A stretch of 64,000 nt of DNA from Eledone cirrhosa (Eukaryota), in assembly GCA_964016885.1 (NCBI GenBank), contig OZ024759.1:9672001-9736000 (forward strand), read 5' to 3'. This document shows positions 49,001-63,336 of this stretch, piece by piece. The notes below the pieces were generated by a model. It searched no databases, was not told the DNA's origin, and saw only the letters and a program-made list of their open reading frames with translations. Within the stretch, counting starts at the first letter, position 1. Every line of letters begins with the position of its first letter. The position numbers and the translations under genes are program-made.

Positions 49001-52000
49001 TAGGCAGCAGATGTAAAGAGAGAGTGGTATGAGGTAGTAAAAAACACTCCTTTCTCTTTACGTGTTGTGACAGAAATTTATATATAAAACTATGGAGGCA
49101 CATGGCTTAGTGGTTAAACCATATGTGTGTGTGTGTGTGTGTGTGTGTGTGTGTGTGTGTGTATATATATATATATGGAGGCACATGGCTTAGTGGTTAG
49201 AGCATTGGCCTTGTAATCGATAGGTTGTGAGTTCAATTCTCAGACTGGGTGATGTGTTGTTTCTTTGAGCAAGACACTTTATTTCACATTGCTCCAGTTT
49301 ACTCAGCTGTAGAAATGAGATGATAGGGACTGGGGTCCCTATCATTCCACTGCAAAGTGGTCGTGGAGGTGCCACGGCAAAAAAAGCACCCAGCACTCAC
49401 TGTAAATGAGGTTGGTGTTAGGAAGGGCATCCAGCTGTAGAAATCAAGCCAGAATCAGTTCCCGTCCCACCCTTGCAAGCAGGGAAAAGTGGACGTAAAA
49501 TGATGATGATGATAAGACTTACTTGTCAAATCGTTTAGTTCTCCAATAAGACATCGTAACATATGGTTGCTTTAATGGAATAATATCTGCACAGGTCATC
49601 ATCTTTTGTCCTTGGTTTTCTGAGAAGAACACGAATGATCTGCCATAAACTGGAAAGACATAACAGAAAAATTAAAGTCATTTATCAAATCATATTTGTC
49701 AGAGTTATTATAAAACCAGGATTGTGAAGGTATATGGCCTAGTGAGAATTGGATTGAACCCAGGAATCACATACATATATATATACACATACACACATCA
49801 TCATCATCATCATCATTTTACGTCCGCTTTTCCCTGCTTGCAAGGGTGGGACGGGTCTTATTCAGCACAGCATCTCTCCACTCGTCACGGTCCTTCGTCA
49901 TCTCCACCGTGAGCTTCAATGATCTGAGGTTTGTTTTCACCACCTCCGCCCATGTTTTTCGTGGTCTACCTCTACCACGTCTTCCTTCAACTGGCAATTC
50001 CTGGCACTTCTTCACCCATCGGTCATCCTCCATGCGCATCACATGTCCATACCACCTCAGTCTCCTCTCCCGTACACTACATTCTATCCCTCTCAGACAC
50101 AGTTTCTCTCTCAATACATCACATGTCCATACCACCTCAGTCTCCTCTCCCGTACACTACATTCTATCCCTCTCAGACACAGTTTCTCTCTCAACACATT
50201 TATGCTGGGTCGTTCACGCACATTTACACTGCACATCCAACGGAGCATGCTTGCCTCATTTCACACACATATATATATATATAGGAACGAGTAGGACCCC
50301 GACGGCTGAGCTCAAGCCGTTTCGACGGCTAATTCTGGACTAAAAATCTTTTTAGTCCAGAATTAGCCGTCGAAACGGCTTGAACTCAGCCGTCGGGGTC
50401 CTACTCGTTCCTATTATCCACTCTACTACCCTAAGTATTGAGTACTTTGGTGCGTTATGGTCCACCTGGTTCCTTACCACATTTCTTCCGTTATATATAT
50501 ATATATATACATACACACACATATATATATATATACATACACACATATATATATATATACATACACACACATATATATATAATCATACACACACATATAT
50601 ATTGACTTCTAACTAGTTAGGCAGCGGGACAGGCAGATAGTGTCTAATACCAAGGCATACCCTGGGGAAGAATGTACCCCACAGCATAGGTTAGTCGTTA
50701 GTGATATCTCAGTAAGCAAGAGATGGAATGAGACATACAGGAAGGTGTGGAGAAGAAAGGTCTGGAAGCTAAAAGACCTTTCACTAAAATACAAATTTAG
50801 GAAAGCCCTTCAAGATGTATATGACGTATAGACGTATGACATAGATAATAACTGGAATTTCTTACGTGACAACTTACTGCAGGCTACTGATGAAACTTGT
50901 GGTTGGAGCATAGCTCCAACCAGACAGAGAGTGACCTGGTGGTGGAACAGCACAGTAGATAAGGCCATTAGAGACAAAAGACTAGCATGGAAGGCTTGGA
51001 AAAAGGGTAGGAGTAGAGAAGGATATACAGCCGCTCAGAGAGAAGCTAGACGTCAGGTGTACTTAGCACGCAGGGAGGCGGAGAGTAGGAGGTTTGCCAA
51101 TGTTCTGCGACGGGAAGATCAGAGGCGTGCGGTCTTCCACATTACAAGGCAGTGTGTCAATACAAATCAGGATGTTGTTGGAGATAAATGTGTCCGGAAT
51201 GATGCCGGTGTACTTAGTGTCACGAATGATCAGAAAAAGGAGGCCTGGAAATGTCATTATGAGAGACTGATGAATGTGGAGAACGAATGGGAGAGAAAGA
51301 AATTACCCTTAGTAGATCCAACAGAGGGACCAGCTATTGAGATTGATGAATATAGGGTCCAAGAGGCGATTAAGGAAATGATAAATGGCAAGGCTACTGG
51401 ACCATCGGGGATAGTTGCTGAGATGCTGAAGGCATCAGGGGACGTAGGCAATAAACTGGTTGCACGTATCATCAATCAGGCTATATATGGTGGTGTCATA
51501 CCCAAAGACTGGTGCAGCAGTATTCTCATAAATTGCTACAAAGGTAAAGGGGATGCTCGGGAGAGGAACAATTATAGGGGTATAAAACTGATGGAACAGG
51601 TTATGAAAGTGGCAGAACGGATATTAGCACAACTAATTAGAGAAAGGGTCAAACTAGATGAGATGCAGTTTGGTTTTGTGCCTGGGAAAAGTACAACAGA
51701 TGCCCTCTTCTTGGTGAGACAATTGCAAGAGAGGTTCTTAGAGAAAAATAAGCCACAATCCTTAGCCTTTGTTGACCTAGAGAAGGCCTTTGATAGGGTA
51801 CCCTGATCTGTTATCTGGTGGTCCCTAAGGAAACTAGGTGTTGAGGAATGGCTTGTGAGGATAGTGCAAACTTTGTACAGAGGTGTTGTCAGTAAAGTCA
51901 GGGTAGGAATGGAGTTTAGTGAGGAATTCCAGATACAAGTAGGAGTACATCAAGGTTCGGTCCTCAGCCCGCTCTTGTTCATTATAGTCCTCCAAGCCAT

Positions 52001-63336: not shown

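Follow-up and report, generated by a model that had tools for sequence, protein, structure and literature searches.

A histidine-less last repeat in the CSRP of Eledone cirrhosa is ordinary for the family, and repeat 3 alone keeps a complete copper site

Proteins known as CSRP, Rsod, cusr, SOD4 or, in insects, SOD6 form one family (PMC13017621, PMC12217663) which, in the parts of these sources available to us, is described by six barrels, short linkers, a signal-like N-terminus and a GPI-type tail. According to the accessible text of Peterson and Culotta (2026, PMC13017621), the Cu site is lost in the first two of the six repeats (R1 and R2), while the oyster protein has intact R3-R6. The same text reports SOD activity of recombinant oyster CSRP and proposes that the non-Cu repeats aid folding; it also mentions CSRPs of Bombyx and of a tardigrade that have no Cu site at all, and proposes a chaperone-like role for dead repeats. 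Its stress, in the sections available, is on N-terminal repeat loss, and its Figure 2B gives sites per species and may include C-terminal losses. The zebrafish CSRP has three Cu-binding repeats (Tan 2025, citing Robinett 2018, in the available part of PMC12217663). No cephalopod is listed in the accessible portion of PMC13017621; the word 'octopus' is absent from the text available for PMC13017621, PMC12217663, PMC12784942 and PMC9524095, and 'cephalopod' from that of the first two. Our literature search, which included six orthologue accessions and covered a minority of subscription journals, returned no paper on a cephalopod CSRP. A SOD of the Argonauta eggcase matrix (bioRxiv 10.1101/2021.07.10.451900) could not be tied to CSRP from the part of the preprint available.

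Candida albicans SOD5 (PDB 4n3t, 5cu9, 5kbl) is an extracellular, GPI-type protein with a single domain that carries four His, the E110/D113 pair and an Arg. SOD folds that have lost their metal ligands are known from dominin, cavortin (Cg-EcSOD) and pernin, the first two without reported SOD activity (PMC13017621, PMC12784942, PMC9118643). Domain II of the chaperone CCS is likewise SOD-like; its Cu site is incomplete, and the domain serves in docking and folding (PMC13017621).

We analysed a window of 64,000 nucleotides from the genome of Eledone cirrhosa (contig OZ024759.1, positions 9,672,001 to 9,736,000). A first-pass annotation had assigned exons, which lie on its minus strand, to the last SOD repeat of a GPI-anchored CSRP. 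Assignment to the last repeat of a CSRP with a GPI-type tail is supported by the gene model, the alignment and the hydropathy, although the span given for R6 starts 24 residues late; these residues and all other repeats lie upstream of the window. The upstream part of the gene was located by a Sod_Cu search of the genome and then by reading the neighbouring stretches, and the complete model has 11 exons over 95 kb that encode 1053 aa with zero internal stops.

9795370-9795421, upstream of the window: first exon, placed by weak similarity and splice sites
9755275-9755366 and 9757608-9757833, upstream of the window: small exons
G000:C20:9738531-9740464, upstream of the window: exon of 1934 nt
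63259..63336, minus strand: exon 5 (aa 769-794), R6 beta-strands 2-3, contains His777
61923..62147, minus strand: exon 6 (aa 795-869), R6 Cu-ligand positions 1-3 and disulfide Cys854
57745..57886, minus strand: exon 7 (aa 870-917), Cys875, Cys883, A884 and D887, with a GC-AG donor at its end
49523..49649, minus strand: exon 8 (aa 917-959), F925, M933 and Cys936; R6 ends here
47688..47800, minus strand: exon 9 (aa 959-997), small alpha/beta domain after R6, placed by tblastn to orthologues, splice sites and predicted secondary structure
38116..38223, minus strand: exon 10 (aa 997-1033), membrane-proximal helices and the small residues CGSSG of a predicted GPI omega region, the site being judged by eye
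28003..28067, minus strand: exon 11 (aa 1033-1053 and stop), hydrophobic GPI-signal-like C-terminal tail without cytoplasmic residues

The introns are GT-AG apart from one GC-AG. A 3398-nt contig from run X1 shows no differing letter across exons 61923-62147 and 57745-57886, and its loose ends are the neighbouring exons, one end reaching the F925 codon, so that the joins 63259/62147, 61923/57886 and 57745/49649 (the GC-AG one) are seen directly. These are the three joins among the four R6 exons, and the exon chain of the first-pass annotation is thus borne out, as is its 285-aa spliced product, which begins at WQY, runs through seven exons and reads open as far as the terminal stop. The contig comes from a single sample in a single study; X1, like the other runs listed as carrying this sequence, is not recorded as RNA yet behaves as spliced. 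Runs X2-X4 carry unspliced sequence at this locus. The joins downstream of 49523 are based on orthologue alignment and splice sites, and by its length and exon offsets the X1 contig would extend about 200 nt beyond the modelled start and about 35 nt beyond the stop, in agreement with the 1053-aa model. The product shares 81% of its residues with Octopus vulgaris CAI9738845, 85% with O. bimaculoides XP_052831622 and 69% with a cluster that includes the cuttlefish Sepia pharaonis CAE1230517. One CSRP locus was found in the genome, by a search of reduced sensitivity with a stricter first look.

Several features of the introns are recorded here as such. The GC-AG donor lies at 57743-57744 (minus strand), directly after 57745, and is the one used in the spliced contig. 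The stretches 53740-56090, 56640-57660, 60760-61420 and 62290-63120 are full of simple and tandem repeats (by eye, units of TATG type, about 119 bp, 10 bp and about 41 bp), which are the source of long spurious open frames. Intron 7/8 holds the remains of a non-LTR retrotransposon, a reverse-transcriptase region broken by stops and frame shifts (50700-53000, plus strand), and further such fragments lie near 18700-19400, 29200-30250 and L001:2116-3171.

The motifs on which the claim of ligand loss was built are all present on the minus strand: HEWQIY at 62138-62121, GKLYNP at 61958-61941 and GRSFVFF at 49644-49624. So are those said to be kept, GDLSAKH at 57838-57818 and LPLFG at 57769-57755, together with all four R6 Cys. 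The residues at the four ligand positions are Q801, Y803, L860 and F925, as claimed.

62129-62127, 62123-62121, 61952-61950 and 49626-49624, minus strand: codons of R6 Cu-ligand positions Q801, Y803, L860 and F925

Their register was examined in two ways, by a 134-row alignment anchored on chiton CSRP and by an HMM built from only 108 intact even-numbered (R4/R6) non-coleoid repeats. Both alignments keep Q801, Y803, L860 and F925 at the four His columns; H798, the His of 'HEW', sits before the HxH motif and off the ligand columns. In addition, A884 replaces the E110-type Glu, D887 is kept, and M933 stands at the column of the catalytic Arg. R6 therefore lacks both the four His of an active Cu-only SOD and the full E110/D113 and Arg set. 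Pfam searches with the lone exons 61923-62147 and 57746-57886 gave no Sod_Cu match, and pairwise BLAST of exon 6 against chiton CSRP was uninformative, since the pieces are too short and the insert described below interrupts the match. Among stand-alone or shorter relatives of R6 (30-537 aa), 12 candidates were considered and none reached E<=0.001.

The only hydrophobic windows of the protein are aa 1-24 and 1032-1053, in a model whose first exon was placed by weak similarity and splice sites. Judged from hydropathy, the C-terminal one is likely a GPI-anchor signal; Lyubetsky et al. call the equivalent SOD4 tail a transmembrane domain in the available text of PMC10416458.

By architecture, with six tandem Cu-only SOD-like domains in 1053 aa, the protein belongs to the CSRPs, which are characterised by 4-12 such domains joined by short linkers and a mass of about 100 kDa or more. 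An HMM made from intact CSRP repeats picks up all six segments (E from 8e-45 to 8e-4), full-length identity to chiton and oyster CSRP is 28-31%, and the large exon scores 83 bits against Pfam Sod_Cu. A Cys pair is present in every repeat, and AlphaFold2 predicts a barrel fold for each in the orthologue (P0122). Like other members of the family, E. cirrhosa CSRP has no Cu site in R1 and R2, which lack the HxH pair and the later His when scored with an HMM of intact non-coleoid repeats, and carries the E110/D113 signature in its intact repeat. The first-pass annotation had left open whether the upstream repeats keep their His; R3 is complete, and R4 and R5 are without. In R3 the ligands H325, H327, H349 and H414 are found together with E372/D375, R420 and the disulfide C341/C423, and its alignment to Candida SOD5 (4n3t, E 5e-8) puts HxH, the third His, EVGD, the fourth His and the Arg in register. 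The family's lack of a Zn site and of an extended electrostatic loop VII holds here as well: R3 carries Glu where SOD1 has His80, and the loop that follows its fourth His is short. The ligand positions read K, A, V, F in R4 and A, Y, I, S in R5, beside Q, Y, L, F in R6, and R3 is the only repeat with four His, E110/D113, Arg and disulfide together. Oyster, chiton and Lingula keep complete sites in R3-R6, as do most bivalves, whereas E. cirrhosa keeps one in R3 only; CSRPs of the zebrafish type lose only R6, and snails and slugs keep R3 and R6.

Structure prediction was carried out on the 85%-identical O. bimaculoides orthologue. The full-length AlphaFold2 model (107 sequences) has a pLDDT of 88.4 and a pTM of 0.89. 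R6 modelled alone (78 sequences) has a pLDDT of 88.3, with a barrel mostly above 90 and an insert predicted as two helices at 60-90. The best structural matches of the R6 model are the SOD5 structures (Foldseek E 8e-7; VIA Z 18.4, rmsd 2.5 A over 141 residues), and Cu/Zn SODs rank below them (Z 17.0 and below). SOD5 is thus the best structural match of R6 and close in sequence to R3, but of its active-site set R6 keeps just the Asp and the disulfide Cys pair. The loop between the second ligand and the disulfide Cys, where the insert is located, borders the active site in SODs. The acidic two-helix insert would adjoin the dead R6 pocket, which it may cap, and large neutral side chains would fill the former Cu pocket. 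The folded R6 without a canonical Cu site that the first-pass annotation proposed is supported by the predicted SOD barrel and the ligand substitutions, and R6 is likely a folded, non-catalytic structural module. Its comparison of R6 to pseudo-SODs of bivalves stands as an analogy and fails as membership of that group, since CSRP keeps a complete R3 Cu site. Dominin and cavortin are, by their descriptions, set apart as soluble plasma derivatives of Cu/Zn SOD, whereas CSRP has six repeats, a hydrophobic tail and the intact R3. CCS domain II differs in that it is intracellular and of separate origin, and human CCS keeps the Zn site and three of the Cu His. Downstream of R6, the model shows a compact beta-alpha-beta-beta-alpha domain at aa 942-1030 (28003-49575, minus strand); it is present in the CSRPs inspected and gave no Pfam match and no usable ESM Atlas match.

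The His-less R6 is real but ordinary for the CSRP family. Among the best 120 of 408 matches, 106 could be scored at R6, and 55 of these have none of the His, 14 have one, 2 have two or three and 35 have all four. Complete sites in the same best 120 of 408 number 97/120 for R3, 73/120 for R4, 99/119 for R5 and 35/106 for R6, in a sample that leans to relatives of R3-R5 because the query contained these repeats. A wider set was obtained by adding 43 proteins and removing the coleoids (161 rows, 33 of them dropped for gaps as fragments or four-repeat forms). In the resulting 128 scorable non-coleoid CSRPs, 69 are without any R6 His and 44 have all four. The novelty that had been implied for the R6 loss is mostly refuted by these counts, with 0/4 His in 69/128 and no complete site in 84/128; homologues broadly share the loss, which the annotation itself had named as the outcome that would remove it. 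R6 is dead in zebrafish and other teleosts, caecilians, axolotl, echinoderms, hemichordates, chelicerates, crustaceans, insects and abalone, and complete in Lingula, chiton, most bivalves, limpets, snails, sharks and Styela. On a FastTree phylogeny of 110/134 rows, nine R6 losses are needed if regain is disallowed, on a weak backbone. The coleoid branch has a stem length of 1.14 and an unsupported placement (0.146), and the independence of the coleoid loss rests for this reason on the accepted animal phylogeny.

CSRPs with one complete site are not rare (22/106) and are chiefly arthropod proteins that retain R5. The silenced subset differs by lineage: R3 and R6 are kept in sharks and in snails, only R5 in many mites and spiders, and R3-R5 in teleosts. 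At least one complete site is present in 105/106 proteins scored, and several insect records have none. In dead R6 pockets (n=69, at most one His), Y or F occupies ligand position 2 in 34 and F or Y position 4 in 29; such aromatic residues, found also in octopus, may represent convergent plugging, in a count that stems largely from one arthropod clade.

Coleoids are distinguished by which sites are lost and by the insert. Counting His in R3-R6, four octopus records read 4-0-0-0, six full-length records of decapodiform type 4-0-0-1 and four truncated ones 4-0-0, so that all ten full-length coleoid records have an intact R3, no His in R4 and R5 and none or one in R6. Among non-coleoid proteins scorable at R3-R6, R3 is the sole complete site in just one (P0072, from the arthropod clade, 4-3-3-0). 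In 7 coleoid records, 46-56 residues separate ligand positions 2 and 3 of R6; in 107 other proteins the median spacing is 16 and the longest 22, and 22 is again the longest in 25 more (132 in total). Among the CSRPs compared, the long R6 insert is seen only in coleoids.

61971..62120, minus strand: coleoid-specific acidic loop (aa 804-853), from ligand position 2 to Cys854, with 12 D/E versus 5 K/R

The insert adds 30-40 residues, and the acidic stretch varies from 40 to 50 aa across coleoids, with 9-15 D/E versus 4-6 K/R. Its ends are conserved and its middle is variable, giving 37-39% identity between octopods and decapodiforms versus 70-71% for the R6 core. The same comparison gives 74% for R3 and 78-79% for R4, so that R4 has changed less than R3. 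The excess distance of coleoids to other lophotrochozoans is 0.12 for R3, 0.51 for R4, 1.06 for R5, 0.55 for R6 and 0.40-0.50 for R1-R2; by these sequence distances, the coleoid stem saw change in the silenced repeats R4-R6 rather than in R3. The idea that dead repeats are unusually conserved in coleoids was weakened when ratios near or below 1 were also obtained for crinoid, hemichordate and clam pairs (ratios outside coleoids come from 15 of 17 pairs). Two homologue searches yielded no record of Nautilus or of an intermediate cephalopod, with nothing between 74% and 39% in one and between 66% and 33% in the other, and the His loss of R4-R6 is consequently not datable within cephalopods from these matches. 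The one-site arrangement of coleoids together with the R6 insert is a modest variant of CSRP for which we found no description.

Since only R3 keeps a complete Cu site, E. cirrhosa CSRP is likely an extracellular SOD with a single active centre. The reading we favour, and hold with good confidence, is of a GPI-anchored extracellular SOD in which R3 would be catalytic and the other five repeats structural, with R6 next to the membrane-proximal domain. The protein would be secreted and GPI-anchored, R3 would load Cu outside the cell as fungal Cu-only SODs do, and it would then turn extracellular superoxide into H2O2. All repeats are predicted to keep the Greek-key barrel and to pack into one body in which R6 is the barrel nearest the membrane. 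Selection for packing would hold the five dead repeats in place, and possibly surface contact in the case of R6. Loss of the His of R4-R6 would fall on the coleoid stem and be separate from the events that silenced R6 in arthropods and deuterostomes.

Strong conservation of dead repeats could equally reflect a new binding function. Remodelling of R4-R6 on the coleoid stem into a ligand-binding or adhesion surface, with the R6 insert as a binding site for a protein, matrix or cation, would make CSRP mainly a surface receptor or scaffold with one redox site. The burst of change in R4-R6 but not in R3 on the stem, followed by slow change, fits such a history, as do the occurrence of the insert in 7/7 coleoid records counted and 0/132 other scorable rows and the conservation of its ends. 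Orthologue knock-downs also disturb development: in the available parts of the sources, knock-down of sod4 blocks tail regeneration in Xenopus (PMC10416458), and SOD6 is linked to axon development in Tribolium (PMC9046187). However, no part of R6 is less conserved than the insert (37-39%), which also varies in length, dead repeats are about as slow as R3 in crinoids, hemichordates and clams, so that slow change is not special, and a binding partner is putative. We regard this remodelling as rather unlikely. Similarly doubtful is its extension to a rebuilding of the ancestral four-site CSRP into a one-site enzyme whose three silenced repeats would form a new surface binding platform, with the acidic helical hairpin of R6 positioning H2O2 production on a partner.

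Far less probable is that R6 binds metal at a non-canonical His/acidic site and serves as a Cu or cation buffer or as a relay for R3. R6 has non-ligand His at 777, 788, 793, 798 and 892, of which H777, H798 and H892 do not vary among 5 coleoid representatives; other CSRPs have S or G in place of H777, decapodiforms retain one canonical R6 His, and the loop is rich in D/E. Against this, H798 and H892 are common off-column residues (His in 81/161 and 60/161 non-coleoid rows), the three His are far apart in sequence, and AlphaFold3 on oyster CSRP gave no Cu sites beyond the canonical ones, according to the accessible text of PMC13017621. We give hardly any credence to decay of the gene or its 3' part, as a pseudogene or mis-assembly, or to RNA editing that restores the His. 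Three of the four formerly active repeats are without ligands and the stem branch is long, but decay, artefact and editing are refuted by the open 1053-aa frame with all four R6 Cys, by the spliced contig identical to the genome in two exons and by the same ligand state in Octopus and Sepia records. A-to-I editing causes an A to be read as G, and since no His codon has a G in it, such editing cannot restore His; rescue of the R6 His by this route was rejected.

The genome also encodes a single-domain Cu/Zn SOD in a gene of its own, the first exon of which resembles a signal peptide (G000:C23:15914000-15927500, minus strand, loci L011 and L016). In the exons found, HxH, the third His and the Zn-type His/Asp are intact; the final exon, which would carry the fourth His, did not turn up. 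Exons at G000:C13:38304700-38307200 (plus strand) presumably belong to a gene resembling cytosolic SOD1, and those at C28:63207290-63207420 (minus strand) we take to resemble the CCS chaperone, both by their motifs.

For the family, this survey points to R6 as the most often silenced of R3-R6, a result that sits badly with the four-site form of the oyster as the rule. For E. cirrhosa, the Cu/Zn SOD encoded on the other contig, if active, could have eased the demand for four CSRP sites, in contrast to oysters. The relation of SOD activity to Cu-free roles of CSRP is a question raised, in the text available, by the 2026 review (PMC13017621). One complete site in six offers a natural minimal case for it, and because that site is single, mutations in R3 alone would separate the SOD activity of CSRP from its Cu-free roles.
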